Positions 22,326-59,231 of a DNA stretch of 64,000 nt are shown in pieces. Positions within the stretch are counted from its first letter, which is position 1, and every line of letters starts with the position of its first letter. The position numbers and the translations under genes were made by a program. Source of the DNA: a virus (lineage: Duplodnaviria; Caudoviricetes); the IMG/VR virus record IMGVR_UViG_2846856033_000001, positions 22,286 through 86,285 of that record; one strand, written 5' to 3'. Below the pieces are notes generated by a model. The model ran no database searches. It saw only the letters and a program-made list of their open reading frames with translations, and was not told the origin of the DNA.

Positions 22326-22367
22326 GGTTGCCAACCCTCCTCTCGCTGTCCTGTGGATGGTGAGGGG
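22326..22367 (+). promoter_or_regulatory. Conserved 42-bp element, copy 1
   Basis: GGTTGCCAAccctcctCTCGCTGTCCTGTGGATGGTGAGGGG. Confidence 0.85.
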
Positions 22368-22401
22368 AGAACGATCTCCCCTGGAAACGGAGGCAGACCT
22401 T

Positions 22402-22584
22402 ATGCAAACAAAGGCAAACAACACGGACACAGACTTGCGAGACGGCGATCTTGACGAGGAACTCGCCGGTATCCTCACCGCAATAAGCATCGTGTCCAAA
22501 CGGCTCGCCAAGAAACTGCTCGCGCTTCAAAGGCGGGACGGAACAACCGAGGAAGGGGGAAGCACAGATGAGCAAGATGAGTGA
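22402..22584 (+). CDS. Small phage protein
   Basis: CGGAGG RBS; DEELAGILTAISIVSKRLA helix. Confidence 0.7.
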   Translation: MQTKANNTDTDLRDGDLDEELAGILTAISIVSKRLAKKLLALQRRDGTTEEGGSTDEQDE

Positions 22585-22927
22585 ACTCGACCTTTGCATC
22601 GGCGAGTTGCGGAATGCCGCAAAGTCGCTGACGGTTTTGGCGGACAATCTGGCGGCATTGTTCGGTGGGAGCGGCGATGCGGAATTCGAAACCCCAGCGA
22701 AAGCGTCTACGGCGTCAGCACAATCCCAGCCATCCCCAAAGGCCGTCACGCTGGAGCAGGTGCGAGCTATCCTCGCCGAAAAGTCCCGCAGCGGACATAC
22801 CGCCGAGGTTCGGGAATTGCTCCTGAAGCATGGCGCGGCGAAGCTGTCGGATATTGACCCGGCGGAGTTTGATGCCCTGCTTGGGGATGCAGTCACCATC
22901 GGACTCGGGGAGGACGAAGATGGGTAA
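22568..22927 (+). CDS. Phage replication-module hypothetical protein
   Basis: 119 aa; TLEQVRAILAEKSR...LLKHGAAKLS. Confidence 0.75.
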   Translation: MSKMSELDLCIGELRNAAKSLTVLADNLAALFGGSGDAEFETPAKASTASAQSQPSPKAVTLEQVRAILAEKSRSGHTAEVRELLLKHGAAKLSDIDPAEFDALLGDAVTIGLGEDEDG

Positions 22928-24053
22928 ACACGCGCTCCTCTCGGCTTCCTCAAGTCACCGATGGCTCAACTGTCCGCCGTCCGCTCGGCTCTGTGAGCAA
23001 TACGAGGACAATGGCAGCGACTACGCCGCCGAGGGTACGGATGCCCACTCCCTTGGTGAGTACAAGCTTAAAACAGCACTCGGCATTAAAGCAAAAGACC
23101 CGACCGCCAACCTGACCTACTACTCCGAGGAGATGGAGGAATGTGCCGCCGGTTACGCCGCTTACATCCTCGAACTGCTGGAGACAGCAAAGCAGACCTG
23201 CACCGATCCTGTTGTACTTATTGAGCAGCGGCTCGACTTCTCTAAGTATGTGGAGGGCGGTTTCGGTACCGGCGACTGCGTGATAATCGCGGACGGGACG
23301 CTCCACATCGTGGACTATAAACACGGTCAGGGCGTTCTGGTGGAAGCAACTGATAATCCGCAAATGAAGCTGTATGCCTTGGGTACTTTGGAGTTGTTCG
23401 ACGGCATCTACGACATCGACAAGGTGTCGATGACCATCTATCAGCCCCGCCGAGACAATGTCAGCACCCACACGGTTTTCAAGGAATCGATCTACCAATG
23501 GGCGGAAGAAGTCTTAAAACCGACCGCCGAAATTGCCTACGCAGGCGGCGGCGAGTACAACTGCGGCGAATGGTGCCAGTTCTGCAAGGCTAAGCAAGAA
23601 TGCCGAAAACGAGCCGAGCGGAATATGGAACTCGCCAAGCTCGAATTCAAATGCCCGCCGTTGCTGGAGGACGACGAAATCGAATCCATTCTCGGTAAAA
23701 TAGACGACCTCATCTCATGGGCTTCCGACATCAAGGACTACGCCCTGCAGGCCGCCCTCGGTGGAAAACGGTGGTTCGGTTGGAAGGTCGTCGAGGGTAA
23801 GAGCAACCGCAAATATGTCAACGAAAATGCCGTCGCCCAGACAGTTCAATCCGCAGGTTACGACCCTTACGAACACAAGGTGATGGGCATCACCGCAATG
23901 GAAAAAGCTCTCGGAAAAACCCGGTTCGCCGATTTGCTCGGCGGTCTGGTCGAGAAGCCGCAAGGCAAACCGACGCTCGTGCCGGAGGGCGACAAACGTC
24001 CGGCAATCAATACTGCCAAAAACGATTTTATGGAGGTAAATACCAATGGCTAA
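22920..24053 (+). CDS. DUF2800 Cas4-like / PD-(D/E)xK exonuclease
   Basis: HALLSASSSHRWLNCPPS, EGTDAH, FGTGD...DYKHG, WCQFC...C. Confidence 0.88.
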   Translation: MGKHALLSASSSHRWLNCPPSARLCEQYEDNGSDYAAEGTDAHSLGEYKLKTALGIKAKDPTANLTYYSEEMEECAAGYAAYILELLETAKQTCTDPVVLIEQRLDFSKYVEGGFGTGDCVIIADGTLHIVDYKHGQGVLVEATDNPQMKLYALGTLELFDGIYDIDKVSMTIYQPRRDNVSTHTVFKESIYQWAEEVLKPTAEIAYAGGGEYNCGEWCQFCKAKQECRKRAERNMELAKLEFKCPPLLEDDEIESILGKIDDLISWASDIKDYALQAALGGKRWFGWKVVEGKSNRKYVNENAVAQTVQSAGYDPYEHKVMGITAMEKALGKTRFADLLGGLVEKPQGKPTLVPEGDKRPAINTAKNDFMEVNTNG

Positions 24054-24636
24054 TCAAACAATGAACCGCAAAAACCCGAATCCCACCCCGAACCCGACCA
24101 AGGTCATCACAGGCGAAGCCAGACTCTCCTACGCAAACCTGTGGGAGCCGAAATCCATAAACGGCGGCACGCCGAAATACTCAGTCAGCATCATCATTCC
24201 AAAGAGCGACGCACACACTGTCGCCAAGATTAAGGCGGCGATTGAAGCGGCATACCACGAGGGCGAGACCAAGCTGAAAGGTAATGGCAAGACTGTTCCA
24301 CCCCTCGCTTCCCTCAAAACTCCGCTCCGCGACGGCGACATCGACCGACCCGACGACGAAGCCTACGCCGACAGCTATTTCATTAACGCCAACAGCGGCA
24401 CGGCGCCCGGTATCGTCGACCATGACTGTGAGACCATTTTCGAACGCTCCCAGATTTACAGCGGCGTATACGCAAGAGCCAGTGTAAACTTTTACGCTTT
24501 CAACTCGAACGGCAACAAGGGCATCGCCTGCGGGCTGAACAACATCCAGAAACTGCGCGACGGCGATCCGCTCGGCGGCAAGCCCAGGGCCGAAGACGAT
24601 TTCGCGACCGAAGACGATGAAGACTTCCTCGGCTAA
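24046..24636 (+). CDS. DUF2815 ssDNA-binding protein (T7 gp2.5-like)
   Basis: RLSYANLWEP, PLRDGD, YSGVYAR, GLNNIQK, acidic tail DDEDFL. Confidence 0.88.
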   Translation: MANQTMNRKNPNPTPNPTKVITGEARLSYANLWEPKSINGGTPKYSVSIIIPKSDAHTVAKIKAAIEAAYHEGETKLKGNGKTVPPLASLKTPLRDGDIDRPDDEAYADSYFINANSGTAPGIVDHDCETIFERSQIYSGVYARASVNFYAFNSNGNKGIACGLNNIQKLRDGDPLGGKPRAEDDFATEDDEDFLG

Positions 24637-24701
24637 CCACACTACACAGGACTCCAGAAGGCGGCGGGAAACTTGCCGCCTTCTTGCCTTATGGAGGGCT
24701 T

Positions 24702-26696
24702 ATGAAAACACTGTCAATCGATATCGAAACCTTTTCCAGCACCGACCTGAACAAGTGCGGTGTGTATAAATATGCTGAGTCACCGGATTTTGAGATTCTG
24801 CTGTTTGGCTATTCCGTGGACGGATGCGAGGTACAGGTCGTGGACTCCACGGAAGGCGAAACGCTTCCGTTCGAAGTCCTCGACGCTCTAACCAACGATG
24901 ATGTGCTGAAATGGGCGTTCAATGCTAATTTTGAGCGGGTATGCCTGTCGCGTTACTTATCTGATATGGGCATATCCCTTGACCCATTCGCTGATAGCCA
25001 CTGCTCATCTCAATACCTTGGTAAGTCGAAATACCTAAACCCCAAATCGTGGCGTTGCTCTATGGTGTGGTCGGCGTATATGGGCTTGCCGCTTTCGCTT
25101 GAAGGTGCGGGAGCTGTCTTGGGCTTGGAGAAACAGAAGCTGACCGAAGGCAAGGAACTAATCCGCTATTTCTGCAAGCCGTGCGCCGCAACCGCCGTCA
25201 ACGGACAGCGAACACGCAACTTTCATGACCACGCCCCCGATAAGTGGGCGGCCTTTAAGGCATACAACCATCGCGACGTGGAAGCGGAGATGTCAATACA
25301 GCAGCGGCTCGTAAACTTTCCCGTGCCGGAGAGCGTCTGGGACGAATACGCCCTTGACCAAGAAATCAACGACCGTGGCGTGGCTCTGGATATGGTTCTG
25401 GTACGAAACGCTATCGCTGCCGACGCCCGTTCAAAGGCCGGACTCACCCGTATGATGAAAGAAATCACGGAACTGAGCAACCCGAATTCCGTGCAGCAGA
25501 TGAAGCAATGGCTCTCGGAAAACGGCATGGAAACCGATACCCTTGGTAAAAAGGCGGTCACTGAAATGTTAAAAAACGCGCCGGAGCCCCTCGGTCGGGC
25601 TTTGTCGCTACGCCAGCAGTTGGCAAAATCCTCGGTCAAAAAATATCAGACGATGGAGAACGCCGTCTGCACTGATGGGCGGGCAAGAGGCATGTTCCAG
25701 TTTTATGGCGCCAACCGAACCGGCAGATGGGCCGGGCGGCTGATTCAGATGCAAAACCTCCCGCAGAATCACTTACCCGACCTCGAACAGGCGCGGGCAT
25801 TGGTGCGAAACGGCGACTTTGCCGCTTTGGAAATGCTCTACGATTCCGTGCCGGAAGTTTTGTCTGAGCTCATTCGCACGGCGTTCGTGCCGAAACCGGA
25901 TCACAAATTTATCGTAGCGGACTTCTCGGCGATTGAAGCCCGCGTCATTGCGTGGTTTGCCGGGGAGCGTTGGCGCAACGAGGTCTTTGCCACCCACGGC
26001 AAGATTTACGAAGCGTCCGCAAGCCAGATGTTTCATGTCCCGATCGAGGAAGTCACTAAAGGCTCGCCTTTACGCCAAAAAGGCAAAATCGCGGAACTCG
26101 CCCTCGGTTATGGCGGCTCGGTCGGCGCGCTCAAAGCGATGGGCGCGTTGGAGATGGGCTTGCAAGAGGACGAGTTACAACCACTCGTCACAGCGTGGCG
26201 GGCATCAAACCCAAACATAGTCCGGCTCTGGTGGGATGTGGACAAAGCGGCTATGACGGCGGTCAGGGACAGGACCGTCACCGAAACCCATGGCGTCCGT
26301 TTCGGCGTTCAGAGCGGAATGCTTTTTATCACCCTGCCTTCGGGGCGGCGGCTCTCCTATGTGAAGCCACGTATCGGCACAAACCAATTCGGTTCGTCTT
26401 GCGTGACCTACGAGGGTGTTGGCGGTACGAAAAAGTGGGAGCGGCTTGAAAGCTACGGGCCCAAATTCGTGGAGAACATCGTGCAGGCAACAAGCCGCGA
26501 CATTCTTTGTTTTGCGATGCAGGCGCAGCGGTGCTGCAATATTGTGATGCACGTCCACGACGAAATGGTCGTCGAAGCCGACCGCCGTATGTCAGCCAAG
26601 GTTTTATGCGAACAGATGAGTTGCACCCCGCCCTGGGCAGAGGGGCTTCTGCTCCGTGCCGATGGGTACGATTGCCCATTTTATAAAAAAGATTAA
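24702..26696 (+). CDS. Phage family A DNA polymerase
   Basis: Exonuclease IDIET/FNANFE; motif A DFSAIEAR, motif B RQKGKIAELALGYG, motif C HVHDE. Confidence 0.95.
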   Translation: MKTLSIDIETFSSTDLNKCGVYKYAESPDFEILLFGYSVDGCEVQVVDSTEGETLPFEVLDALTNDDVLKWAFNANFERVCLSRYLSDMGISLDPFADSHCSSQYLGKSKYLNPKSWRCSMVWSAYMGLPLSLEGAGAVLGLEKQKLTEGKELIRYFCKPCAATAVNGQRTRNFHDHAPDKWAAFKAYNHRDVEAEMSIQQRLVNFPVPESVWDEYALDQEINDRGVALDMVLVRNAIAADARSKAGLTRMMKEITELSNPNSVQQMKQWLSENGMETDTLGKKAVTEMLKNAPEPLGRALSLRQQLAKSSVKKYQTMENAVCTDGRARGMFQFYGANRTGRWAGRLIQMQNLPQNHLPDLEQARALVRNGDFAALEMLYDSVPEVLSELIRTAFVPKPDHKFIVADFSAIEARVIAWFAGERWRNEVFATHGKIYEASASQMFHVPIEEVTKGSPLRQKGKIAELALGYGGSVGALKAMGALEMGLQEDELQPLVTAWRASNPNIVRLWWDVDKAAMTAVRDRTVTETHGVRFGVQSGMLFITLPSGRRLSYVKPRIGTNQFGSSCVTYEGVGGTKKWERLESYGPKFVENIVQATSRDILCFAMQAQRCCNIVMHVHDEMVVEADRRMSAKVLCEQMSCTPPWAEGLLLRADGYDCPFYKKD

Positions 26697-26702
26697 TTGC
26701 CC

Positions 26703-26744
26703 GGTTGCCAAACTGCCCCTCGCTGTCCTGTGGATGGTGAGGGG
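26703..26744 (+). promoter_or_regulatory. Conserved 42-bp element, copy 2
   Basis: GGTTGCCAAactgcccCTCGCTGTCCTGTGGATGGTGAGGGG. Confidence 0.85.
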
Positions 26745-26785
26745 TTCACAGCCTCTCGGAAAAATCTATTTTCAGGAGGTTTGGT

Positions 26786-27565
26786 ATGAACGAATTACAA
26801 GTGTTCTCCTACGAGGGGAACGAAATTAGGACGGTGCACCAGGGCGACGAAACACTCTGGGTGCTGAAAGATGTGTGCGATGTGCTTGGGCTGTCGGACA
26901 CGAACAAGGTGGCGGAGCGTTTGGACGGCGATGAGCTGACCCGAATCAAATTCGTGTCAGGTGGTCAGACTCGTGAAATGTATGCCGTCAGCGAAAGCGG
27001 TCTCTACAACGTCATCCTCCGCTCCGAAAAGCCCGAAGCTAAAAGGTTCAAACGCTGGGTCACCCACGAAGTGCTTCCGACCATCCGCAAGCACGGTGTG
27101 TATGTCACTCCCGCCAAGCTGGAAGAGATCATGAACGACCCCGACGCTTGGATTAAGGTGCTGACGACTCTTAAAGCGGAACGTACCGCCAAGGAAAAGC
27201 TTCAGCTGGAAGCTGCCAAGAACGAGCCGAAGGTCGTATTTGCCGACGCCGTGTCGGTGTCCGACGGAACTATCCTCATCGGCGAACTGGCAAAAATCCT
27301 AAAAGGCAACGGCATCGAAATCGGGCAGAACCGCCTGTTCGAGAAACTGCGTCAGGATGGCTACCTCATCAAACGTCAAGGCACGGACTACAACGCCCCG
27401 ACGCAGAGGGCGATGGAATTGGGACTTTTCAAGGTTAAGGAAACTGCCATTACGCACTCCGACGGTCACGTCACCATCAGTAAAACCACAAAGGTCACGG
27501 GCAGAGGTCAGCAATATTTCATCAATCTTTTCCTTGGAAAAGGGGTAACCGAAAATGACAACTGA
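26786..27565 (+). CDS. Phage antirepressor (BRO-N plus KilA-C/ANT)
   Basis: SESGLY...KPEAKRFKRWVTHEVLP; IGELAK...GQNRLF...TKVTGRGQQYF. Confidence 0.92.
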   Translation: MNELQVFSYEGNEIRTVHQGDETLWVLKDVCDVLGLSDTNKVAERLDGDELTRIKFVSGGQTREMYAVSESGLYNVILRSEKPEAKRFKRWVTHEVLPTIRKHGVYVTPAKLEEIMNDPDAWIKVLTTLKAERTAKEKLQLEAAKNEPKVVFADAVSVSDGTILIGELAKILKGNGIEIGQNRLFEKLRQDGYLIKRQGTDYNAPTQRAMELGLFKVKETAITHSDGHVTISKTTKVTGRGQQYFINLFLGKGVTENDN

Positions 27566-27848
27566 AAAAAAGCAAGCCATAAAAACGGCTCTGAGGAAAG
27601 TCGGCAAGGCAGTCTGGTCGGCGCTCCCGTGGGTGTTCATGTGGATTGGGTTGACCTGCTTGTTCTCGCTCCTGCTTATTAGTGCGGATAAAAGCACGGA
27701 ACGAACCAAACAGCTTGCGGCACTTGAAGCTGAGAACGCGAGGTATGAATCGGAAAACGTACGACTTGATGAGGAGGTCAACTGGCTTCGCTCCCTTGTC
27801 GAAAGGATGGAATTTGAGGAGGTTGGCGATGGACAGGCGCAACCATGA
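27555..27848 (+). CDS. Small membrane-anchored coiled-coil protein
   Basis: One hydrophobic helix, then heptads; coupled to both neighbours. Confidence 0.6.
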   Translation: MTTEKKQAIKTALRKVGKAVWSALPWVFMWIGLTCLFSLLLISADKSTERTKQLAALEAENARYESENVRLDEEVNWLRSLVERMEFEEVGDGQAQP

Positions 27849-30572: not shown

Positions 30573-30582
30573 TTACGGCGCG

Positions 30583-30785: not shown

Positions 30786-30803
30786 TGAAAAGCGGAGGTG
30801 CTT

Positions 30804-32497: not shown

Positions 32498-32959
32498 ATG
32501 CAGATAGCTTGGAAATATTTGAACAAACGGGTTGCCTCTTTGGAGGCTCTCAAGGACTACGGCAGCATGCAATTCATTCTGGAACACACCGACGACGACA
32601 TTCGGGCGGAGCATGAAAAGATGCAGAGCGTCCGAATCCCCAGTTTTGATGGAATGCCCCACGTCCACAATCCGCAGGCCGGTGAGCAGCGCATCATAAA
32701 CGGCATCGAGGAAATCGACGTTCTGAAGGAACGCTATCGGCAGGCGATGGAGTATATGGCGTGGTTCCAACCGGCATGGGACGACCTGACCGAGGAAGAG
32801 CAGTTTGTGCTACGGGAATTCTACATGTGCGACGAGGCCCAGCAGATCGACGCGGTTTACAACATCTGCGACCATTTCCACATCGAGCGGTCTTCTGCAT
32901 ACAACAAGAAGAACCGCGCACTTTACCATCTGCAAGTGCTACTGTTTGGAAAATCTTAA
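32498..32959 (+). CDS. ArpU/RinA-like late transcriptional regulator
   Basis: Last gene of the replication module; C-terminal HTH FHIERSSAYNKKNRAL. Confidence 0.7.
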   Translation: MQIAWKYLNKRVASLEALKDYGSMQFILEHTDDDIRAEHEKMQSVRIPSFDGMPHVHNPQAGEQRIINGIEEIDVLKERYRQAMEYMAWFQPAWDDLTEEEQFVLREFYMCDEAQQIDAVYNICDHFHIERSSAYNKKNRALYHLQVLLFGKS

Positions 32960-32963
32960 AATG

Positions 32964-35212: not shown

Positions 35213-36391
35213 ATGACTACTTACAAAACAGCAGAAAGCGTATGCGCCGGACACCCGGATAAGCTGTGCGACATCATTGCCGACAGCATTCTTGACGCCT
35301 GTCTGCGCAAAGACAAATCATCCCGTGTTGCCTGTGAGGTCATGGCAACCAAGGGCAAAATTATCGTTGCGGGCGAGATCACCTGCGACGGCAAAGTCGA
35401 CATCCGCTGGGAGGTGCGTGAAGTCCTCCGCAAGGTCGGATACAATCCGTGGAAGTTCACAGTTTTCGTGTTCGTCCATAAACAGAGCAGGGATATCGAT
35501 GCCGGAGTGACTACTGCCCTCGAAGCCCGAAACGGCAGTGAGGAACGCTATGCCTCCATCGGTGCGGGCGACCAAGGCACCGTCTACGGTTACGCCACAA
35601 ACGAAACCCGCGAGATGCTTCCACTCCCGCTGGTACTGGCGCATCGCATCGTGAAGCGCCTTGACACCGTCCGCAAGGACAAAATTGTGAAAGGCATTTT
35701 GCCGGACGGCAAAGCGCAGGTCACGGTCGAATATGAGGACGGAAAGCCCAAGCATGTGAAAACGATTGTGGTCTCCGTTCAGTACGACAAGAATAAAACG
35801 CAGGTGCAGCTTTACTCCGACATTAAGCAAAATGTTCTGTGGCAGTGCTTTGAGGACTTTCCCTTTGACGATGAAACAGAAATCCTCATCAATCCCTCCG
35901 GCAGATTTGTCGAGGGCGGACCCGCCGCCGATACAGGCTTGACGGGCAGAAAGATGATGGTGGACACCTACGGGGGGCTTGCTCTTCATGGCGGAGGTGC
36001 GTTTTCCGGCAAAGACCCCACCAAGGTCGACCGCAGCGGCGCTTACATGGCGCGGTACATCGCAAAAAATATCGTATGGAGCGACTTGGCTGAAAGATGC
36101 GAGGTCGCTCTTTCTTATGCCATTGGCAAAGCTGACCCCGTGGCGGTTAATATTAACGCCTTCGGCACGAGTGCGCTGACCGATGAGCAGCTACGAGAGA
36201 TTGTGCTGTCTGTGTTCAACCTGCGCCCGGCGGCAATCATTGAAAAACTGCGTTTGCGCAATGCGATATACGAGGACACGTCGGTATACGGACATTTCAA
36301 TTCCTGTCTCTTCCCGTGGGAGGATTACGATAGGTACAAAGAAATCAGAAAGGCGGCGGAGAAATATGCTGATAGAAAAGATTCAGACTGA
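35213..36391 (+). CDS. metK: S-adenosylmethionine synthetase
   Basis: ESVCAGHPDK, GAGDQG, PDGKAQV, GGGAFSGKD, KVDRSGAY. Confidence 0.96.
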   Translation: MTTYKTAESVCAGHPDKLCDIIADSILDACLRKDKSSRVACEVMATKGKIIVAGEITCDGKVDIRWEVREVLRKVGYNPWKFTVFVFVHKQSRDIDAGVTTALEARNGSEERYASIGAGDQGTVYGYATNETREMLPLPLVLAHRIVKRLDTVRKDKIVKGILPDGKAQVTVEYEDGKPKHVKTIVVSVQYDKNKTQVQLYSDIKQNVLWQCFEDFPFDDETEILINPSGRFVEGGPAADTGLTGRKMMVDTYGGLALHGGGAFSGKDPTKVDRSGAYMARYIAKNIVWSDLAERCEVALSYAIGKADPVAVNINAFGTSALTDEQLREIVLSVFNLRPAAIIEKLRLRNAIYEDTSVYGHFNSCLFPWEDYDRYKEIRKAAEKYADRKDSD

Positions 36392-37607
36392 TCGGCTCAT
36401 CCCCGCCGATTACAATCCCCGCAAAGACCTCAAGCCAGGAGACCCGGAATATGAAAAGCTGAAACGCTCGCTTGAGGAGTTCGGTTATGTTGAACCCGTT
36501 ATATGGAATAAGATCACCTCTCATGTCGTCGGCGGTCACCAGCGTCTGAAGGTGCTGCTCGACATGGGCATCACCGAGGTCGAGTGCGTGGTGGTCGAGA
36601 TGGATGCCGAAAAGGAAAAGGCACTCAATGTTGCGCTCAATAAAATAAGCGGCGATTGGGATAAGGATAAGCTGGCTCTGCTCATCGCGGATTTGCAAGG
36701 CGCGGACTTTGATGTTTCGTTCACAGGCTTCGACCCCGGAGAGATTGACGATCTTTTTAAGGATAGCTTGAAAGACGGTATCAAAGATGACGATTTTGAT
36801 GTGGACGCGGAACTGCAAAATCCAGCCGTCACCAAGCCCGGCGACGTGTGGCTGCTCGGTCGGCATCGGCTTGTCTGCGGCGATTCAACCAAAGCCGACA
36901 CCTTTACCGCTCTGATGGATGGGAAGCTGGCAAATCTGGTTGTGACCGACCCTCCGTACAATGTCAACTATGAAGGAACGGCGGGCAAAATCAAAAACGA
37001 CAATATGGAAAGCGGAGCGTTCTATGACTTCCTGCTGGCGGCGTTTACGAACACCGAAGCGGCGATGGCGCAGGACGCTTCCATTTATGTGTTCCATGCC
37101 GACACCGAAGGTCTGAACTTCCGCAAAGCGTTCTCGGACGCGGGCTTTCAGCTTTCCGGGTGCTGCATCTGGAAAAAGCCGTCGCTGGTGCTGGGACGTT
37201 CACCCTATCAGTGGCAGCACGAGCCTGTGCTGTTCGGCTGGAAGAAAAAGGGCAAGCACAACTGGTACGCAGACCGCAAGCAGACGACCATCTGGGAATT
37301 TGAGAAGCCGAAGAAAAATGCCGACCACCCCACCATGAAGCCGATTGCGCTCCTGGCATATCCCATTATGAACAGCAGTCTCACAAACTGCATCGTGCTC
37401 GACCCCTTCGGCGGCTCCGGCAGTACGCTGATTGCCTGCGAGCAGTCGGACAGAATCTGCTTCACCATCGAACTGGATGAAAAATACTGTGATGTTATTG
37501 TAAAGCGATATATTGAGCAGGCCGACGGTGCTGACGGTGTGTCCGTACTACGCGACGGGTTAACTTATAAATATGACGAGTTGCTGAAGGTGAAGCCGGA
37601 TGAGTAA
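36366..37607 (+). CDS. ParB-like N-domain plus N6-A/N4-C DNA methyltransferase
   Basis: YNPR, GGHQR; TDPPYN, HPTMKP, DPFGGSG. Confidence 0.92.
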   Translation: MLIEKIQTDRLIPADYNPRKDLKPGDPEYEKLKRSLEEFGYVEPVIWNKITSHVVGGHQRLKVLLDMGITEVECVVVEMDAEKEKALNVALNKISGDWDKDKLALLIADLQGADFDVSFTGFDPGEIDDLFKDSLKDGIKDDDFDVDAELQNPAVTKPGDVWLLGRHRLVCGDSTKADTFTALMDGKLANLVVTDPPYNVNYEGTAGKIKNDNMESGAFYDFLLAAFTNTEAAMAQDASIYVFHADTEGLNFRKAFSDAGFQLSGCCIWKKPSLVLGRSPYQWQHEPVLFGWKKKGKHNWYADRKQTTIWEFEKPKKNADHPTMKPIALLAYPIMNSSLTNCIVLDPFGGSGSTLIACEQSDRICFTIELDEKYCDVIVKRYIEQADGADGVSVLRDGLTYKYDELLKVKPDE

Positions 37608-40224
37608 ACCTCTATATCATGTTGTTTCGCTATCCGGCGGCAAAGACAGTACCGCAATGCTCCTCGGCATGATTGAACGCGGAATGCAAATCGATTGTAT
37701 TCTCTTCTGCGATACCGGGCTTGAGTTTCCTGCGATGTACGATCATCTGGAAAGACTTGAGCGGGATATCGGCAGATTAATTACACGGATACGCTGCGGG
37801 CAGTCATACGAGTATCTGATGTTCGACACCCCGGTCAAACGAAAAACCGATACGCAGTTTTCTCAGAAATATGGAAACATTCATACCGGCTACGGGTGGG
37901 CGGGACCAAAGATGCGATGGTGTACGGCAAAGCTGAAAGACGGACCTCGAGAACGGTTTCTGCGGCCGCTGCGGGACAAGTATGACGTTATCGAGTACAT
38001 CGGCATCGCAGCGGACGAAGGCTATCGTCTGGAACGCAAACGCAATAAAAACATCTGTCATGTGCACCCGCTTGTCGACTGGGGTATGACTGAATCGGAC
38101 TGTCTCCGTTATTGTTATTACCACGGCTATGACTGGGATGGTTTGTATGAGCATTTCAAGCGTGTGTCCTGCTGGTGCTGTCCGCTACAGTCGCTTTCTG
38201 AACTGCGGCAGCTATATAATCATTACCCGGAACTATGGGCAAACCTTAAAGATTGGGATAAACGGACATGGAGAAAATTTCGCGCCGACTATAGTGTGGA
38301 AGAACTCGAAGCCCGTTTTATTTTTGAAGAACAGCGTCTTGCGGATGGGCTTCCCATCAAAGGCAAGGCGTTTTTTAATGAACTAAAAAACGTCTGGAGG
38401 CGACCGCCGATGAATAAGCTCACCCTCGGCTCTCTTTTTGATGGCTCCGGCGGCTTTCCGCTCGGTGGTCTGCTCTGCGGCATCGAACCGCTGTGGGCTT
38501 CGGAGATTGAGCCGTTCCCGATACGGGTAACGACCAAACGGATACCGCAGATGAAGCACTACGGTGATGTTTCCTCGCTAAACGGCGCGAATTTGCCACC
38601 GGTGGATATTATAACTTTCGGTTCGCCCTGTACCGATATGTCCGTCGCCGGGAAAAGAGTCGGTCTGGACGGAAGCCAATCCGTCCTTTTTTATGAAGCG
38701 ATACGAATTATAAAGGAAATGAGGTGCAAGACCAATGGCAGATACCCAAGATACGCCGTGTGGGAAAACGTCCCCGGCGCATTCAGTTCAAACCAAGGGG
38801 CCGATTTCAAGGCAGTCCTTGAAGCGGTCGTCAGCGTCACCGGGCAAAACACCGAGGTGCCTGCGCCTGACAACGGGCGGTGGCCTTACGCCGACTGCTA
38901 CATGGGAGACGGATGGAGCGTTGCTTACAGAACTATCGACGCGCAATATTTCGGAGTACCCCAGCGCCGCCGCAGAATCTACCTTGTCGCGGATTTTGCA
39001 GGCGAATGTGCCGGAGAAATACTATTTGAGCCGGAAGGCGTGTCAAGGGATTTTGCGCCGTGCGGCAGCCCGTGGCAAAGAACTGCCGGAGATGCTGAGA
39101 ACGGCTCTGGAACAACAGGCAGCGGCATAACCTGCCTGAACGACCAAGGCGGTGACCGTATGGATATCACCGAAGATACGACGGCTACGCTCCGCGCCGA
39201 AGCCCATCACCCGCCCTGCGTGATGCAGTCGAGCGGTTTCTGCACAGAGCACAGCGCCAAAAGCCGAAGCGTCGGCTATGAAGAGGAACGCTCTCCCACG
39301 CTCCGTGCGGGGATTGTGCCGGGTGTCGCGATCGAAAACCATCCCACCGACGGTCGTGTCAAGGTTTCGGAAGACGGCATGGTGCAGACGCTCACTTCCC
39401 GTATGGGTACGGGCGGCATGAACACTCCGCTTGTACTGGACACGCCGAAAACGTTGAAAATTCGTTCCGGCTGTGTGGGTGGTGGCAAAGGCGCGCTGAT
39501 TCAAGACGATATGTCCGCAACCCTCGGCTGTAACAATGACCAGACTGTTTTTGTTCCGACCGCTTACGGTATCTGTTCTGATAAGAGCAATTCCATGATG
39601 TCGGATAATCCTCACAGCGGCATTTACAAAGCGGACACATCCCGCACCATCGATGCAAACGGCGGCAACCCCAGCTGCAATCAAGGCGGTATCGCCGTGG
39701 TTGCCTTGCAGGGTTCCATGATTGGACGCGAGGATGAAAACGGTCCCCAGGGCAGTGGCATTGATGAAAATGTGTCTTTCACATTAAATACGGTCGACCG
39801 CCACGCCATCGCCTATGCTATGACCACAGGCAGCTTTGCACAGGTAACGGAGGAAAAATCGCCAACGCTCATGTCGCGTGACTATAAAGACCCTCCGCTT
39901 GTTAACCAGCCGGACTACATCGTCCGCAGGCTGACGCCAACTGAATGCGCCCGGCTTCAAGGCTTCCCGGACGGCTGGTGCGCCGGTCTCGGCACGGATA
40001 ACCCAACCGAGGATGAAATCGCGTTCTGGGCTGAGGTTTGGGAAACTCACCGCCGTATCATCGGCACAAGCGAAAAGCCCAAGAGCCGCAATCAGATTAT
40101 CAAATGGCTGAACAACCCGCACTCCGATGCCGCCGAATACAAGATGTGGGGCAATGGCGTGGCGCTGCCGTGTGTTTGCTTTGTACTTACAGGGATTGTG
40201 TCGTCTACACAAGAAACCGCTTGA
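37600..40224 (+). CDS. PAPS-reductase-family domain in frame with a C5-cytosine MTase (internal RBS and ATG at 38410)
   Basis: SGGKDS, DTGLEFP, RWC, RVSCWCCP; then FDGSGG, GSPCTD, ENVPG, QRRRR, RLQGFP, GNGV. Confidence 0.88.
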   Translation: MSKPLYHVVSLSGGKDSTAMLLGMIERGMQIDCILFCDTGLEFPAMYDHLERLERDIGRLITRIRCGQSYEYLMFDTPVKRKTDTQFSQKYGNIHTGYGWAGPKMRWCTAKLKDGPRERFLRPLRDKYDVIEYIGIAADEGYRLERKRNKNICHVHPLVDWGMTESDCLRYCYYHGYDWDGLYEHFKRVSCWCCPLQSLSELRQLYNHYPELWANLKDWDKRTWRKFRADYSVEELEARFIFEEQRLADGLPIKGKAFFNELKNVWRRPPMNKLTLGSLFDGSGGFPLGGLLCGIEPLWASEIEPFPIRVTTKRIPQMKHYGDVSSLNGANLPPVDIITFGSPCTDMSVAGKRVGLDGSQSVLFYEAIRIIKEMRCKTNGRYPRYAVWENVPGAFSSNQGADFKAVLEAVVSVTGQNTEVPAPDNGRWPYADCYMGDGWSVAYRTIDAQYFGVPQRRRRIYLVADFAGECAGEILFEPEGVSRDFAPCGSPWQRTAGDAENGSGTTGSGITCLNDQGGDRMDITEDTTATLRAEAHHPPCVMQSSGFCTEHSAKSRSVGYEEERSPTLRAGIVPGVAIENHPTDGRVKVSEDGMVQTLTSRMGTGGMNTPLVLDTPKTLKIRSGCVGGGKGALIQDDMSATLGCNNDQTVFVPTAYGICSDKSNSMMSDNPHSGIYKADTSRTIDANGGNPSCNQGGIAVVALQGSMIGREDENGPQGSGIDENVSFTLNTVDRHAIAYAMTTGSFAQVTEEKSPTLMSRDYKDPPLVNQPDYIVRRLTPTECARLQGFPDGWCAGLGTDNPTEDEIAFWAEVWETHRRIIGTSEKPKSRNQIIKWLNNPHSDAAEYKMWGNGVALPCVCFVLTGIVSSTQETA
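38735..39130 (+). CDS. Nested out-of-frame gene, putative MTase small (beta) subunit
   Basis: GAGGTG RBS 8 nt upstream; LSRILQANVPEKYYLSRKACQGILRRA resembles the C5-MTase variable-region element. Confidence 0.7.
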   Translation: MADTQDTPCGKTSPAHSVQTKGPISRQSLKRSSASPGKTPRCLRLTTGGGLTPTATWETDGALLTELSTRNISEYPSAAAESTLSRILQANVPEKYYLSRKACQGILRRAAARGKELPEMLRTALEQQAAA

Positions 40225-40265
40225 TTATCGGAACATTATTCTCCACATAGATGAGCCCTGAATTG

Positions 40266-40297
40266 CTTGATAAATCAGGCATTTAGAGTGATATATG
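40266..40297 (+). promoter_or_regulatory. 32-bp promoter-like motif, copy 1
   Basis: CTTGATA-N12-AGAGTGATATATG; second copy at 59793-59824. Confidence 0.65.
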
Positions 40298-50274: not shown

Positions 50275-50303
50275 AAAAGGCACTCCGAAAGGGGTGTCTT
50301 TTT
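50275..50303 (+). terminator. Hairpin plus T-tract ending the moron
   Basis: AAAAGGCACTCC-GAAA-GGGGTGTCTTTTT. Confidence 0.65.
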
Positions 50304-50334
50304 CATGCCCATTTTTCGACGAGGAGGTGAGAAA

Positions 50335-54358: not shown

Positions 54359-54370
54359 GAGGTTTTCAAA

Positions 54371-56659
54371 ATGAAGATACAAGAACGAGCCGTTCTGCAT
54401 AACCGGTTTGATGTCAAAGTGGTCGACGCCGCAAGCGGCAGGGTCAAGCAGACGGCGATCGGATTCAACGTCATTACGAACTACTATTTTAACAGCAGGC
54501 TGACGGCTTCTCCGCTTAGTAAAACGACAGACCTGTTCAGATACATCGCGGTCGGTACCGGAACGGGGACGCCCGCCGTTACGGATACTGCCCTTTTTTC
54601 GCATCTGACGCGCAAAGCTGTAACGACGCTGGAGACGGTTTATGAATATCCAACTTCGCATACTACAAAGCAAATAAAGCTGGAAGCGACGGAATGCAAT
54701 GGCTCCACCATTACCGAGGTGGCTCTCGAAGGTTATTACAGTGGCACCTTTTCTACTACTTATTACATCATGTCCCACGCCATGCTGCAGGACTCCGAAG
54801 GAAACCAAATTGCCATCGCCAAGACCGATACGGACGTGGTGTATATAACCGCGACATTCTACGCGACCTGTACGCCATCGGGCTTCGGCACAAACGGAAT
54901 TTATCCCACGGCTGAGAACAATTATCTGTTCCAATGGCTGCTTACTGGAAATACAGACGGGTATGTGCGCTTTTCCCGCTTCCCGGTAGAGTACTCCTCG
55001 GATATGAACGTGAAGTATCACGGGAGTAAAAGCTATTCCTTCAGCGGCGGTACCGGCAATACAACTACCTACCAGTACGACCTGCCCGTCACCACGTTCC
55101 TTGACAGCGAGTGCAACAACCGCATCGTCAAGCACCTCGGTGTCGCCGGGGTCGGCGCGTTCACCTTTCCGAACCATGACGTATTCCCGCCCTATGCGGT
55201 CGACCATCTTGTCATCGGCGAAGGAGATGGAACGACAACCGAGTTCAGTATGAAGTGCCCGCTGATACAGTCCGGGACCGTCCGTATTTTTGTAAACGAT
55301 ACGGAAATGACAGAAGGCACGGACTATACGGTGGATTTGGAGAACAACTGCGGTGACTGGTATGAAAACTACCATACGGCGGCGATGACCTGCAAAAGCG
55401 CCGGAGTATCCTTTGGAGACCTCGCTTCAAAAACGTCATACACAGGTCGTAACTATCGAGATCCCATAGCTTGGTGGGATTGTTATGATGATACGATGTA
55501 TCCATCTTCCTGCACAGTAAACGATGTGAATCCAATTAAAATAGACTTTGGTTCGGCAAAGTCCTGCAACACACTGAAGATTGATATTCTGACCGTCCCG
55601 ACCGCAAGGCTCGATACGCTTAAAATACAATACTCAGACAACGATACTGACTGGACGGACGTATCGGGGCTTTCGAGGTCAAGTCAGGTTTGGAAATTCA
55701 CAGAGGTTTCGGCGCGGTATTGGAGAGCGTTTTTAAGCGGCGAAGGAAACGCCACTGTCGTCGTCACATCAAGCGGCATGACAGGCTCGCCGATCACCCT
55801 TTCCGTGCCTGTGGCCTCATCGGATACGGCGAGCATTGTGGCGGGCAAGATAAAAACAGCCCTTGAAAACAATGCGAATATTTCAGCTTTATATGATGCG
55901 TCGGTCTCAGGTGCGGATGTGGTCTTAACAGCAAAAACGCCGGTGGCGAATGTTTCAAACTTGAATATTGCCCTGTCAAACGGTACCTGTGCGGGATTGA
56001 CTACCGTTTCAAACTCGACCAATACGACAGCCGGAGTGGCCGCTGTAAAGCAGCAGGAAAATATCTATGTTACCGGAACCATCGGGACTGCGGGAAACGC
56101 AACGGTTGTGGTAACGGCTGCTGGAATGGCAAACTCGCCGATCACCATTTCTGTGCCGGTTACAAGCGGCGATTCGGCGACGACCGTCGCAACAAAAGTA
56201 AACGCCGCGCTCGCGCTGAGTTCCGACATTACCGACTTCTTCACAATCAGTCCAGATAACGGCAGATATGTCCGGCTGACCGCAAAAACAGCAGCGGATA
56301 ATGATCCTACCCTGAATATCAGCATTGCAAACGATACCTGCACCGGATTAACCGCTATACCAACATCCACCGTTGACGCCGCAGGCAATGCGGGAACAAA
56401 ACAAGTGGAGACCTTAACCGTATCGGGCAGTGTCAGCTACAGCTGGACTTACAGCTTGTATTACCAGAGTTTCCCGACAAGGGACGGTCAGAGTTTCGGC
56501 CCAACCTTCTTTTTGGGTAAGACCGTGCCGGGGCTGAAGTTCACAATACCGCCTGCCGACGGCGCGGCGATTACAGCCAGCTTTGCGCTTGAATATCCGT
56601 TCAAGACCGAGAACAATCTGTTGCGCTTCACCTACTCGGTTCAGCTGCAAAGAGGGTGA
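54371..56659 (+). CDS. Tail fibre / receptor-binding protein with discoidin-like segment and internal tandem repeat
   Basis: IAVGTGTG...DTAL fibre N-terminus, GDGTTTEF, IQYSDNDTDWT...ARYWR, two ~116-aa repeats. Confidence 0.75.
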   Translation: MKIQERAVLHNRFDVKVVDAASGRVKQTAIGFNVITNYYFNSRLTASPLSKTTDLFRYIAVGTGTGTPAVTDTALFSHLTRKAVTTLETVYEYPTSHTTKQIKLEATECNGSTITEVALEGYYSGTFSTTYYIMSHAMLQDSEGNQIAIAKTDTDVVYITATFYATCTPSGFGTNGIYPTAENNYLFQWLLTGNTDGYVRFSRFPVEYSSDMNVKYHGSKSYSFSGGTGNTTTYQYDLPVTTFLDSECNNRIVKHLGVAGVGAFTFPNHDVFPPYAVDHLVIGEGDGTTTEFSMKCPLIQSGTVRIFVNDTEMTEGTDYTVDLENNCGDWYENYHTAAMTCKSAGVSFGDLASKTSYTGRNYRDPIAWWDCYDDTMYPSSCTVNDVNPIKIDFGSAKSCNTLKIDILTVPTARLDTLKIQYSDNDTDWTDVSGLSRSSQVWKFTEVSARYWRAFLSGEGNATVVVTSSGMTGSPITLSVPVASSDTASIVAGKIKTALENNANISALYDASVSGADVVLTAKTPVANVSNLNIALSNGTCAGLTTVSNSTNTTAGVAAVKQQENIYVTGTIGTAGNATVVVTAAGMANSPITISVPVTSGDSATTVATKVNAALALSSDITDFFTISPDNGRYVRLTAKTAADNDPTLNISIANDTCTGLTAIPTSTVDAAGNAGTKQVETLTVSGSVSYSWTYSLYYQSFPTRDGQSFGPTFFLGKTVPGLKFTIPPADGAAITASFALEYPFKTENNLLRFTYSVQLQRG

Positions 56660-56663
56660 CGCG

Positions 56664-57992
56664 ATGACGCTGACATTTGAATATACCCTTGATACCGGAG
56701 CAGGCTTGTATCCGCAGGTGATCCACACCTCGGACAACCTGCTCCGTTTCATATACCTCACCGCCGACGGCACCGTGGCGGGAAGCACGGCAGACCCGGT
56801 TCTCGGTTTGTACGATAATCTGACCTATACCGAAACCGGCAGGATATCAACCGATGAAACGGTGTCGTATCCGAGCATCAAAAAAGTGGCGCATTACGGC
56901 GCATACGGATTCTGGAGCGCCGAGGGCGACCACCGTTTTGTGATGTATATGCTGCCGACCGACATTACAAATTCGTTTATCGACGGCTCGGTCAAGTTCA
57001 GCATCGGCAGCGAGGTCTCGCAGATGTCCTGCACCCTGCTCAACATCAAGGGGGCGCTGCTCAATCGCTACCGTGCTTTCGTGACACCCGGCACCAAGAT
57101 GGAGCTGTACTTTTCACTCGGAGACAGCGGCGAAATCACGCTCGGCATTTTCTATATCGACCGCGCTTCGGTCGCGTACCCGGACGAAAAAGTATCGGTG
57201 TCTGCCAGAAACGCAATCGGCAAGTTGCTAAAGGAACAGACCTTTAATGAGGACAACACCTTTGAAGGTACGACGCTTCAGCTGAACCTGCAGGAGATTC
57301 TTCGCCACGCCGAGGTGGAGGATTTTTTTGTCGGCGACAACACAAAGGCATGGAAGCTACGCTTCGAACCGGATGTCACCATACTGGACGGCATCAAGCG
57401 GGTAATCTCTCTGCTTGACGGCTGGAAGGTCGATGAAACGGCAAATGGCGTTATCGGCGTGGCGGCGGCTACAGACGCCCGTTTCGACCAGCCCGCCGTG
57501 TATACCTTCGAGCGCGACAAGACCTGCTGGAGCTACAGCGTGGAATATGACGATTCGGAAGCGGTCAGCAGGGTCTGCGTCACCTGCACCAACCCGGAAA
57601 ACACGGTTTATGCTACAGCTCCCAGAAGCAAATGGTGGGTTCAGCCGTCCCACCGCACGACTTACGTCACAGCCGCCGACGGTGCAACGCTTGCCGAGAT
57701 AACGGCTATGGCCGAGGAGTTGGCGCAGACCATCGCCATATCCGGCAGGCAGGAGAGCTTCGTCGGCATCTTCACGCCCCAGCTCACCATCGGGGACGAG
57801 GTGCACATTGTCAGCGAGGCAAAAACCGAAACCATCGGTACTGTCACGGATGTTACGCACAATTTCGGCAGGGGCGGTTTCTATACGGCGTTCACCGTGG
57901 ATAGCGGCGGACGAAAAGGCAAAGCGCGTCTTTCAGATTTGATCGGCAAAGCATCCGAAAAGTCCAATCTGAACGGCGTGACAATTTATTAA
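56664..57992 (+). CDS. Tail tip / baseplate hub protein
   Basis: LGIFYID, PQLTIGD...VTDVTH hub-like motifs. Confidence 0.65.
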   Translation: MTLTFEYTLDTGAGLYPQVIHTSDNLLRFIYLTADGTVAGSTADPVLGLYDNLTYTETGRISTDETVSYPSIKKVAHYGAYGFWSAEGDHRFVMYMLPTDITNSFIDGSVKFSIGSEVSQMSCTLLNIKGALLNRYRAFVTPGTKMELYFSLGDSGEITLGIFYIDRASVAYPDEKVSVSARNAIGKLLKEQTFNEDNTFEGTTLQLNLQEILRHAEVEDFFVGDNTKAWKLRFEPDVTILDGIKRVISLLDGWKVDETANGVIGVAAATDARFDQPAVYTFERDKTCWSYSVEYDDSEAVSRVCVTCTNPENTVYATAPRSKWWVQPSHRTTYVTAADGATLAEITAMAEELAQTIAISGRQESFVGIFTPQLTIGDEVHIVSEAKTETIGTVTDVTHNFGRGGFYTAFTVDSGGRKGKARLSDLIGKASEKSNLNGVTIY

Positions 57993-58006
57993 GGGAGGAA
58001 TTTATT

Positions 58007-58420
58007 ATGAAAGAAATTTGGACATGGATTCAACTTTTGCTCGCTGCTATCGGTGGCTGGCTCGGTTGGTTTCTCGGAGGAGCTGACGGCTTTCTCTATG
58101 CGCTCATCGCATTTGTGGTTATCGACTATATTACCGGCGTGATGTGCGCCATCGTAGACCACAAGTTATCCAGCGAGGTCGGCTTCAAGGGCATCTGTAA
58201 AAAGGTGCTCGTTTTTATGATGGTCGGTATCGGAAACATCATCGACGTCCAAGTACTGGGGCAGGCTGGGGTGCTGCGTACTGCGGTCATCTTCTTTTAT
58301 CTATCCAATGAGGGCGTGTCGATGCTTGAAAATGCCGGACATTTGGGGCTGCCTATTCCGGCGAAGCTTAAAGAGGTACTTGAACAATTACACGATAGGT
58401 CTGGCAAGGAGGATAATTAA
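58007..58420 (+). CDS. Holin (phage holin 4 family)
   Basis: DYITG, LSSEVG, NEGVSMLEN. Confidence 0.92.
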   Translation: MKEIWTWIQLLLAAIGGWLGWFLGGADGFLYALIAFVVIDYITGVMCAIVDHKLSSEVGFKGICKKVLVFMMVGIGNIIDVQVLGQAGVLRTAVIFFYLSNEGVSMLENAGHLGLPIPAKLKEVLEQLHDRSGKEDN

Positions 58421-59143
58421 ATGAACCTGCACAAACTCATTCTGACCAACAACGCCTGCTACAAGGCTGGCAGAACCATCACGCCGAAGGGCATCATGGT
58501 GCATTCTACCGGGGTGAATAATCCCAATCTGAAACGCTATGTCGGTCCCGACGACGGGTTGTTGGGAAAAAACCAGTATAACAATCACTGGAATCAGGAC
58601 AAGCCGGATGGTCGACAGGTCTGCATCCACGGCTTCATAGGCAAGCTGGCTGACGGAACGATAGCTACTTACCAGACACTGCCGTGGAATATGCGCGGCT
58701 GGCACTGTGGCAGCGGTTCAAAAGGCTCCGGGAACGATACGCATATCGGCTTTGAAATCTGCGAGGACGGTCTGACCGACGCCTCGTATTTTTCTGCCGT
58801 TTACAAGGAAGCCGTGGAGCTTTGCGTGTATCTCTGCAATCTGTACAACCTTACCGAAAAGGACGTTATTTGTCACTCGGAAGGATATAAGCAGGGCGTT
58901 GCCAGCAACCACGGCGATGTAATGCACTGGTTCCCGAAACACGGCAAGAGCATGGATACCTTCCGCGCCGAGGTCGGAAAGCTGCTTGTTGCATCCGCTC
59001 CCGCTACCGAGCCTGCACCGACCACACAAAAAACGCTCTACCGTGTTCAAATCGGGGCGTATTCTGTCAAAGCGAATGCCGACGCTATGCTCTCCAAAAT
59101 CAAGGCGGCGGGCTTCACCGACGCTTTCATCAAAACTGAATAG
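58421..59143 (+). CDS. N-acetylmuramoyl-L-alanine amidase endolysin with SPOR-like C-domain
   Basis: IMVHST, WHCG, IGFEICE, CHSE, NHGD; YRVQIGAY. Confidence 0.9.
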   Translation: MNLHKLILTNNACYKAGRTITPKGIMVHSTGVNNPNLKRYVGPDDGLLGKNQYNNHWNQDKPDGRQVCIHGFIGKLADGTIATYQTLPWNMRGWHCGSGSKGSGNDTHIGFEICEDGLTDASYFSAVYKEAVELCVYLCNLYNLTEKDVICHSEGYKQGVASNHGDVMHWFPKHGKSMDTFRAEVGKLLVASAPATEPAPTTQKTLYRVQIGAYSVKANADAMLSKIKAAGFTDAFIKTE

Positions 59144-59155
59144 TTCGCACGTTTC

Positions 59156-59197
59156 GGTTGCCAACTGACCCCTCGCTGTCCTGTGGATGGTGAGGGG
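59156..59197 (+). promoter_or_regulatory. Conserved 42-bp element, copy 3
   Basis: GGTTGCCAActgacccCTCGCTGTCCTGTGGATGGTGAGGGG. Confidence 0.85.
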
Positions 59198-59231
59198 TTT
59201 ATTCTTTTCCCCTCCGAACGGAGGTAACCCA

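Follow-up and report, generated by a model that had tools for sequence, protein, structure and literature searches.

A three-copy promoter-like cassette with overlapping stem-loops and its co-variation with a phage sigma-like protein in a temperate tailed phage

The 64,000-nucleotide (nt) stretch of DNA analysed here (the window; positions 22,286 to 86,285 of the IMG/VR virus record IMGVR_UViG_2846856033_000001) is part of a temperate tailed prophage and carries three copies of an intergenic element, at 22326, 26703 and 59156. These copies are probably private promoters of a phage-encoded sigma-like protein, the product of open reading frame (ORF) 21850-22311. Each promoter would be joined to a 5´ stem-loop and to a hairpin that blocks read-through, and each lies at an operon boundary; we hold this reading with moderate confidence. 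The anatomy of the motif, its co-variation with the protein and both hairpins are direct observations on the sequences compared.

The pattern GGTTGCCAA-N7-CTCGCTGTCCTGTGGATGGTGAGGGG, searched with three mismatches allowed, matches the window exactly three times, always on the plus strand and with 0 mismatches. None of 100 shuffled versions of the window contains any match. The same three copies form the top repeat family (D1) in a repeat search of the window, and no further copy is present in the whole 86-kb provirus record. The element begins 14, 6 and 12 nt after a stop codon in copies 1, 2 and 3 (TAA 22309-22311, TAA 26694-26696 and TAG 59141-59143, respectively), and the 3´ ends of the copies are located 30–45 nt ahead of a GGAGG site and a start codon. 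A single intergenic cassette, repeated three times, therefore holds the stop codon, the promoter-like boxes, an overlapping stem-loop, the Shine-Dalgarno site and the start codon. GGTTGC and GTCC are separated by 16 nt in 3/3 copies, which is a spacing like that of extracytoplasmic function (ECF) sigma factors. Downstream of the first hairpin (hairpin 1), each copy contains a second partner for the GAGGGG arm (TCTCCCC, CCTCTC and CCCCTC in copies 1–3) that forms hairpin 2. A first-pass annotation, made from the letters alone, had described the three exact copies, their position just after stop codons, the ECF-like spacing, a plus-strand hairpin with three G-U pairs, and the second partners together with the GGAGG sites; all of these were recovered here, the hairpin by folding both strands. 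The features of the protein gene and the three copies are listed below.

21850..22311, plus strand: gene of the 153-amino-acid (aa) sigma-like protein, with an N-terminal 4-Cys domain and a C-terminal sigma-70 region 4 helix-turn-helix.
22326..22334, plus strand: copy 1 box GGTTGCCAA, -35-like, found by pattern search; its box type tracks the recognition helix across loci.
22347..22358, plus strand: copy 1 core TGTCCTGTGGAT, -10/discriminator-like; 1.2–2.0 bits per column in columns 22–33 of alignment A2 (see below).
22337..22369, plus strand: copy 1 hairpin 1, 15 pairs, loop UGU; -24.8 kcal/mol, z -5.5; reverse strand -12.8 kcal/mol.
22361..22384, plus strand: copy 1 hairpin 2 (GGGGAGA/TCTCCCC), putative 5´-terminal stem-loop of the promoter transcript; -14.6 kcal/mol, z -4.8.
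22389..22404, plus strand: copy 1 Shine-Dalgarno site GGAGG and ATG of a 60-aa ORF, heading the DUF2800 / Enc34-type single-strand-binding protein / PolA operon (to 26696).
26703..26711, plus strand: copy 2 box, found by pattern search.
26724..26735, plus strand: copy 2 core, found by pattern search and in alignment A2.
26715..26745, plus strand: copy 2 hairpin 1; -24.3 kcal/mol, z -6.3.
26738..26758, plus strand: copy 2 hairpin 2 (GAGGGG/CCTCTC); leader -11.4 kcal/mol, z -2.0.
26775..26788, plus strand: copy 2 Shine-Dalgarno site and ATG of the Bro-N/KilAC antirepressor, in an operon that runs to 32959 (VapE-type primase, SNF2 helicase, ArpU-like gene).
59156..59164, plus strand: copy 3 box, found by pattern search.
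59177..59188, plus strand: copy 3 core, found by pattern search and in alignment A2.
59167..59209, plus strand: copy 3 hairpin 1 with a T-rich tail, terminator-like; 15 pairs, -25.3 kcal/mol, tail TATTCTTTTC, directly 3´ of the amidase (lysin) gene.
59190..59215, plus strand: copy 3 hairpin 2 (GAGGGG/CCCCTC); -10.5 kcal/mol, z -2.9.
59220..59639, plus strand: copy 3 Shine-Dalgarno site and gene of a 135-aa helix-turn-helix plus Cys-rich protein, followed by large serine recombinases at 59846-61165 and 61152-62735.

The element was compared across 27 genome loci and 51 viral loci, which were fetched by homology to the sigma-like protein, plus the window. Throughout these loci, an element is located 3´ of the stop codon of the sigma-like gene. 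The core was matched 353 times with at most two mismatches; CAA occurs at the fixed upstream offset in 135 of these matches, 132 of which are on the strand of the gene. When any offset up to 40 nt was allowed, the spacer between box and core measured 13 nt in 124/127 cases and 12 nt in the other 3, with no other length. In the gapless alignment A2 of 85 unique 45-mers, positions 2-3 (GT), 7-9 (CAA) and 22-33 (TGTCCTGTGGAT) are near-invariant. The spacer holds 0.1–0.9 bits per column compared with 1.2–2.0 in the core, and its sequence is free but pyrimidine-rich. Matches from a loose 14-base pattern scan of the viral contigs were kept out of the counts (83 of 99 lack the box and are mostly chance). 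One locus (L038:8001-8600) is a decayed relative, with stops in the sigma-like frame and an element that is broken right after GGATGGTG. The protein and element occur together in genomes labelled Dehalococcoides, Clostridia, Syntrophomonas, Pelotomaculum, Heliorestis, Brevibacillus and Paenibacillus, and in a Desulfobulbaceae metagenome bin, and unless some bins are mixed, the phage family thus extends over two phyla or more.

The box changes with the recognition helix of the protein. Helices SHQ, KHQ and KRQ are accompanied by the box core TTGC in 35/35 elements, and helix SQV by TTAT in 10/10. Helix SQK is accompanied by TACT in 91/96 elements, the remainder being one-base variants or chance matches. 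A few cases link TQQ to TTGT, SQS to (T/C)GTT and PQT to TGCT. Where a locus contains two or more elements, one box type is shared in 48 of 53 loci. The N-terminal domain of the protein and the core of the element are constant across all helix and box types. This co-variation, with the fixed spacing, is what a two-domain protein that reads two DNA sites would produce, and the comparison supports the element as a candidate cognate site of the ORF 21850-22311 protein with ECF-like geometry. The first-pass proposal that this protein uses the element as its promoter gains support from the same three features (box/helix co-variation, spacing and geometry), and the -35 box does follow the sigma-like protein across relatives, as that proposal would predict.

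Both sequence and fold identify the C-terminal 70 aa of the protein as sigma region 4 (residues 86-150). Pfam Sigma70_r4 matches residues 99-147 and NCBIfam sigma70-ECF matches residues 86-147. Profile matches in the PDB (SigF, SigB and SigL) cover region 4 only; Foldseek matched SigL region 4, 3hug and 6dv9_F, and the fold search also returned region 4 of SigF and SigE. The first 75 residues contain four invariant cysteines (C41, C49, C53 and C56) along with a beta hairpin and a long helix; this part of the model has low confidence (predicted local distance difference test 51-76). Residues 1-85 matched only unnamed viral clusters in the protein atlas and no known family. The protein family contains 262 clusters at E<=0.001 among 432 candidates. 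Its nearest named relative is a hypothetical protein of Dehalococcoides mccartyi (96% identity), and other members derive from Clostridia and Dehalobacter, many of them labelled sigma-70 family. Among 50,697 records of cultured phages, no carrier was found and one match was weak and partial.

Immediately downstream of the core, a second structure is conserved in position and free in sequence. The leaders, defined from element position 34 to the ribosome site, number 68 unique sequences, and z-scores were computed per sequence. A stem-loop starts at position 34-40 in these leaders, 33 of them at position 36, which is 1–7 nt past the core, and it is followed by the Shine-Dalgarno site and the start codon. 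The z-score is below -1 in 63 leaders and below -2 in 56. The arms of hairpin 2 are diverse (TGAGGG/CCCTCA, GAGAGG/CTCTC, AGAGGGC/GCCTTC, GGGGGC/GCCCTC, ATTGG/CCAAT and others). On the MAFFT alignment A3, the six-pair hairpin 2 pairs in 83.3% of cells versus 29–65% with a slid partner, with 25 cells changed on both sides, and 0/500 shuffles reach the observed score. This named six-pair structure was used instead of the RNAalifold output for the MAFFT leader alignment, which contained 3 pairs only and had mis-registered 3´ arms. Because a stem-loop of free sequence sits at a fixed distance from the core, we infer that the RNA 5´ end lies near element position 34-35, 6–8 nt past GTCC as at ECF-type promoters. 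Stem-loops at mRNA 5´ ends stabilise the ompA, ermC and aprE leaders. Like these, hairpin 2 is a free-sequence stem-loop located a few nt from the putative 5´ end and ahead of the ribosome site, and it is likely a 5´-end stabiliser.

Hairpin 1 overlaps the spacer and the core of the element. Its predicted energy in the three copies is -24.3 to -25.3 kcal/mol (z -5.5 to -6.3), against no better than -12.8 to -15.8 kcal/mol on the reverse strand; three G-U pairs in the stem account for this plus-strand specificity. In alignment A2, pairing is present in 79.4% of cells compared with 44–58% when the partner is slid, and 0/500 shuffles score as high. The pairing is distributed unevenly among lineages. 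In the lineage of the window (GGTTGCCAA box), 93% of cells are paired (median -21.0 kcal/mol, median z -4.9). In the sister lineage (GGTACTCAA), the first of two tandem elements after the gene reaches 94% (median -22.4 kcal/mol, z -6.2) with different arms (CCCTCTGGT/ATCAGAGGG), which are compensatory relative to the window's lineage. The sister-lineage elements that carry hairpin 2 and a ribosome site show medians of -9.9 and -7.8 kcal/mol (z -1.4 and -0.7), and their gapless pairing is at background (57% versus 54–57% slid).

Further information comes from 14 unique post-gene gaps, which extend from the gene to the ribosome-site-bearing element 61–76 nt downstream. In 9 of the 14, box and core are both lost and the hairpin is kept at -16 to -31 kcal/mol; among these decayed gaps, one has its loop cut to 5 nt and another has different arms and a different loop. 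Retention of the hairpin despite the loss of box and core indicates selection on the hairpin itself, at the level of RNA structure. The alternative of a palindrome in the DNA that binds a protein dimer was also considered and is unlikely, given the changes in loop length and the strand-specific G-U pairs. Judged by these comparisons, the stand-alone hairpin is merged with the promoter in the window's lineage. Hairpins 1 and 2 share the GAGGG arm, and such overlap occurs only in this lineage.

The terminator form of hairpin 1 is restricted to part of the family. In copy 3, the T-rich tract that follows hairpin 1 makes it the best terminator-like site of its region. Among 108 unique elements of the family, the stem runs unbroken for 10 pairs or longer in 41, and 13 of these also have a T-run. 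All 13 carry the GGTTGCCAA box, and 11 of them precede the helix-turn-helix/Cys gene that heads the recombinase module. We infer that hairpin 1 is a read-through barrier, which would act as a terminator after the lysis genes in copy 3 and as an attenuator, a 3´-end cap or a processing site elsewhere.

A barrier of this kind could also be the target of antitermination. The element would then be the loading site of a processive antiterminator (Q-, N- or RfaH-like), and the protein would bind the box or the core during passage of the polymerase, for read-through of hairpin 1 and of later terminators. The position of the element after the first early gene resembles that of lambda nutR, a conserved box is followed by a hairpin, the hairpin inside the element is terminator-like, and Pfam Phage_antitermQ gives weak matches in 8/24 family members (best E 0.014). 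These matches, however, are below threshold and confined to the shared helix-turn-helix (residues 97-145), and the overlapping sigma-70-type promoter required for Q-type loading is absent. The hairpin loops vary freely, which argues against a specific protein-binding loop, and sister-lineage elements have no strong hairpin to override. We regard antitermination as quite improbable.

A translational role for the two hairpins had been proposed in the first-pass annotation. Read-through RNA would form hairpin 1 and free a CCCTC-type segment to mask the Shine-Dalgarno site, and RNA started inside the element would form hairpin 2 and be translated; such a switch would be a lineage-specific layer on the promoter. 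Long RNAs, with 40 nt ahead of the box on the 5´ side and 18 nt beyond the start codon on the 3´ side, and short RNAs that begin at position 34 were folded. The values below are predicted unpaired probabilities of the Shine-Dalgarno site, which are thermodynamic and assume the 5´ end.

Window copy 1: long 0.19, short 0.28.
Window copy 2: long 0.01, short 0.01.
Window copy 3: long 0.00, short 0.12.
This lineage, 25 unique elements, means: long 0.10, short 0.41; 5´ arm shuffled 0.12, all upstream shuffled 0.18, random natural upstream 0.23.
Sister lineage, 47 unique elements, means: long 0.37, short 0.49; 5´ arm shuffled 0.42, all upstream shuffled 0.34, random natural upstream 0.34.

In the window's lineage, the site is more accessible in the short RNA by >0.2 in 16/25 elements and less accessible in none, and the real upstream sequence gives a value >0.15 below random natural upstream sequence in 10/25. 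The two hairpins that share the GAGGG arm are both supported, and the long form of copy 3 folds CCTCC onto GGAGG, as the first-pass annotation had suggested for the pairing over its ribosome site. However, the site is mostly masked even in the short forms of copies 2 and 3, and shuffling the 5´ arm barely alters accessibility (0.12 versus 0.10). There is no effect in the sister lineage (0.37 versus 0.34), where hairpin 1 is weak, and the stand-alone hairpin after the sigma-like gene has neither hairpin 2 nor a ribosome site to control. In these models, accessibility drops with any pyrimidine-rich upstream RNA, and the share specific to hairpin 1 is small and present in one lineage only. Masking of the Shine-Dalgarno site as predicted does not depend specifically on hairpin 1, and translational gating is unsupported. 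Conservation of the alternative pairing was not borne out, since the sister lineage keeps the promoter and hairpin 2 with only a weak hairpin 1, and the claim that only the short RNA would be translated is not supported. We consider the translational switch decidedly unlikely.

Taken as private promoters with a fused barrier, the copies would work as follows. The 9-nt box would be the -35-like site, read by the region 4 helix-turn-helix of the ORF 21850-22311 protein. The core TGTCCTGTGGAT, 13 nt downstream of the box, would be the -10/discriminator-like site and is presumably read by the 4-Cys domain together with host RNA polymerase. Transcription would start at about element position 34-35 (22359, 26736 and 59189), and the RNA would open with hairpin 2 as a likely 5´-end stabiliser, ahead of the Shine-Dalgarno site and the first gene. 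In the window's lineage, the spacer and the first transcribed bases would form hairpin 1 in transcripts that arrive from upstream, and the hairpin would end, attenuate or cap them; copy 3, which has a U tract, would qualify as a canonical intrinsic terminator placed behind the lysis genes. With a barrier and a private promoter combined, expression of the replication, antirepressor/primase and recombinase genes would require the sigma-like protein and would not come from read-through. This scheme goes beyond the sequences compared in three parts: the position of the start site, the dependence on the protein, and the role in termination or insulation.

Several observations weigh against this scheme. 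The co-variation comprises only about six lineage-level types, and the number of independent co-variation events is accordingly small. The sister-lineage elements without a strong hairpin 1 indicate that the role of hairpin 1 cannot be general, and in copies 1 and 2 hairpin 1 lacks a following U tract and was not flagged as a terminator. Region 2 is not recognisable in the protein: Sigma70_r2 matched 0/24 family members at E<=1, and no region 2 match was returned by the PDB or BFVD fold searches. The protein may consequently not act as a sigma factor alone, and no conserved small gene that could encode a region-2-like partner was found beside the sigma-like gene. The upstream 48-aa ORF was considered as a split-sigma partner and rejected, as it is present in only 3/78 related loci.

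With region 4 only, the protein could be a classical activator that recruits host sigma-A polymerase, or it could need a separate region-2-like partner as in split SigO-RsoA, and the missing region 2 is what leaves room for both. The available text on SigO-RsoA describes sigma domains 4 and 2 as separate proteins (PMC8103513). As described there, SigO resembles the present protein in carrying the sigma-4 function only. The two systems differ in two ways: a partner resembling RsoA was not found in the present loci, and that text describes nothing equivalent to the N-terminal Zn-type domain. The core contains no TATAAT-like hexamer, and the lack of a conserved small partner gene also counts against a split sigma. 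We judge the activator or split-sigma reading to be very unlikely.

The private-promoter reading also has a bolder form, which we consider unlikely. Here the 153-aa factor would lack region 2 and would use its Zn-type domain to read the 12-nt core at the tip of the hairpin, possibly extruded or single-stranded. The 45-nt cassette would stop or silence upstream RNA and license only RNA started by the factor, and commitment to excision and replication would become all-or-none. Phage N4 virion-polymerase promoters provide a precedent for an extruded or single-stranded promoter hairpin.

The genes that follow the three copies form replication, antirepressor/primase and recombinase modules, in line with the replication operon, antirepressor/primase operon and excision module that the first-pass annotation had named. 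Copy 1 is followed by two small ORFs, a DUF2800 nuclease-like gene, an Enc34-type single-strand-binding protein and a family-A DNA polymerase; ORFs of 60 aa and 119 aa are found 3´ of the element in 63/78 and 71/78 related loci. Copy 2 is followed by the Bro-N/KilAC antirepressor, a VapE-type primase/helicase, an SNF2 helicase and an ArpU-like late regulator. Methylases, terminase, portal, capsid and tail genes, holin and amidase are located between the copy 2 operon and copy 3. Copy 3 is followed by the 135-aa helix-turn-helix/Cys-rich protein, two large serine recombinases and an adjoining tRNA gene.

Other features of the window concern the control of these genes. ORF 21850-22311 is located rightward of a divergent control region (21353-21500), in which sigma-70-like promoter candidates occupy 21380-21353 (minus strand) and 21402-21430 (plus strand, with TG). 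A 46-nt near-perfect palindrome at about 21453-21498 (RNA -32.4 kcal/mol, z -8.0) is probably an operator or a leader of the lysis-lysogeny switch. The leftward gene at 20039-21364 (minus strand) encodes a 440-aa protein with a C-terminal CGNR zinc finger (phrog_30403) and occupies the expected repressor position. The interval that separates the 48-aa ORF (21529-21675) from the sigma-like gene contains, at 21731-21795, a strong hairpin (-32.2 kcal/mol, z -4.6) and then TTGTTTCGTTTTT; such a terminator-like gate would make expression of the sigma-like gene conditional. The ArpU/RinA-like regulator (32498-32959) closes the copy 2 operon ahead of the packaging genes, a position which suggests a cascade from an early promoter to the sigma-like protein, then to the ArpU-like protein and to the late genes. 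Genes for SAM synthetase, a ParB-N/N6-N4 DNA methylase and a PAPS-reductase-like/C5 cytosine methylase stand in a row at 35213-40224, between the small terminase and the structural genes. A 37-nt repeat that ends in AGAGTGATATATG occurs twice (40261-40297 and 59788-59824), 20–35 nt ahead of the start codons of ORF 40330 and of the serine recombinase at 59846. It may be a second promoter type that provides recombinase entry independently of copy 3. The tRNA gene (63065-63137, minus strand) is positioned directly beyond the two serine recombinases, and the attachment site is probably in the same region.

Compared with known systems, the cassette shares features with several of them. SPO1 gp28 and gp34 and the phage ECF-like sigma factors are phage-encoded sigma factors with their own promoters, and BFVD lists phage ECF sigma models in the fold search. 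Like these, the present system would combine an early region 4 protein with a private bipartite promoter that heads the next genes, and it has ECF-like spacing and GTC in the downstream box. In contrast, region 2 is absent and a 4-Cys domain takes its place, the protein (153 aa) is shorter than usual ECF sigma factors, and the downstream box extends over 12 nt with hardly any variation. Retroregulation of lambda int by sib, which proceeds by RNase III cleavage at a 3´ site, is similar in that the fate of recombinase-module RNA depends there, as it would here, on the promoter from which it originates. The mode of action differs, as sib acts through RNase III at its 3´ site and no evidence of that was found here.

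The closest likeness is to the promoter-early stem-loop (PeSL) cassettes of T4-type phages, whose stem-loops overlap the -10 box or lie between -35 and -10 (Arbiol et al., 2010; PMC2839356). In the available portion of that paper, these stem-loops were shown by reporter assay to terminate incoming transcription (PMC2839356). Both cassettes contain -35/-10 boxes, a G-T-paired stem-loop over the -10 box or spacer and a Shine-Dalgarno site, and both are repeated within the genome (PMC2839356, same portion). The PeSL promoters described there (PMC2839356) are of the host sigma-70 type, whereas the present boxes show no sigma-70 consensus and track a phage-encoded protein. A consensus scan placed no sigma-70-like hexamer pair on the three elements. 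According to the same text, PeSL cassettes occur in dozens of copies that flank orphan genes in hyperplastic regions and mediate shuffling (PMC2839356), whereas here three copies in 86 kb are located at core operon boundaries of a temperate phage. The hairpin is, moreover, a separate element in part of the present family. With its promoter, 5´ stem-loop and fused hairpin, the element can be regarded as a cassette of the PeSL kind that would serve a phage-encoded factor in a temperate phage.

The first-pass statement that this was not a described element is thus half right. Promoter-stem-loop cassettes as a kind have been described for T4-type phages (PMC2839356, in the portion available), but the present element and protein family did not turn up in searches of the literature on Dehalococcoides prophages and their activation, on phage-encoded sigma factors, or on phage sigma factors without region 2. 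No Rfam family fits the element: weak matches around the three copies were all far below thresholds, and in the whole window only a tRNA reached a gathering score.

The regulatory map that results can be tested and concerns a temperate phage family of anaerobes that is widespread though uncultured; in this map, one early protein would turn on three operons through private promoters. Dehalococcoides mccartyi, a species employed in bioremediation, harbours relatives, as do Clostridia, Syntrophomonas, Heliorestis, Brevibacillus and Paenibacillus. The matched helix and box variants (TTGC, TACT, TTAT, TTGT and TGCT) are candidate orthogonal factor-promoter pairs. If the protein does work as a sigma factor without region 2, the definition of a sigma factor would become wider. 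Through its fusion of promoter and hairpin, the cassette carries the PeSL idea over from lytic phages of the T4 type, with their host-sigma promoters, to a further setting.

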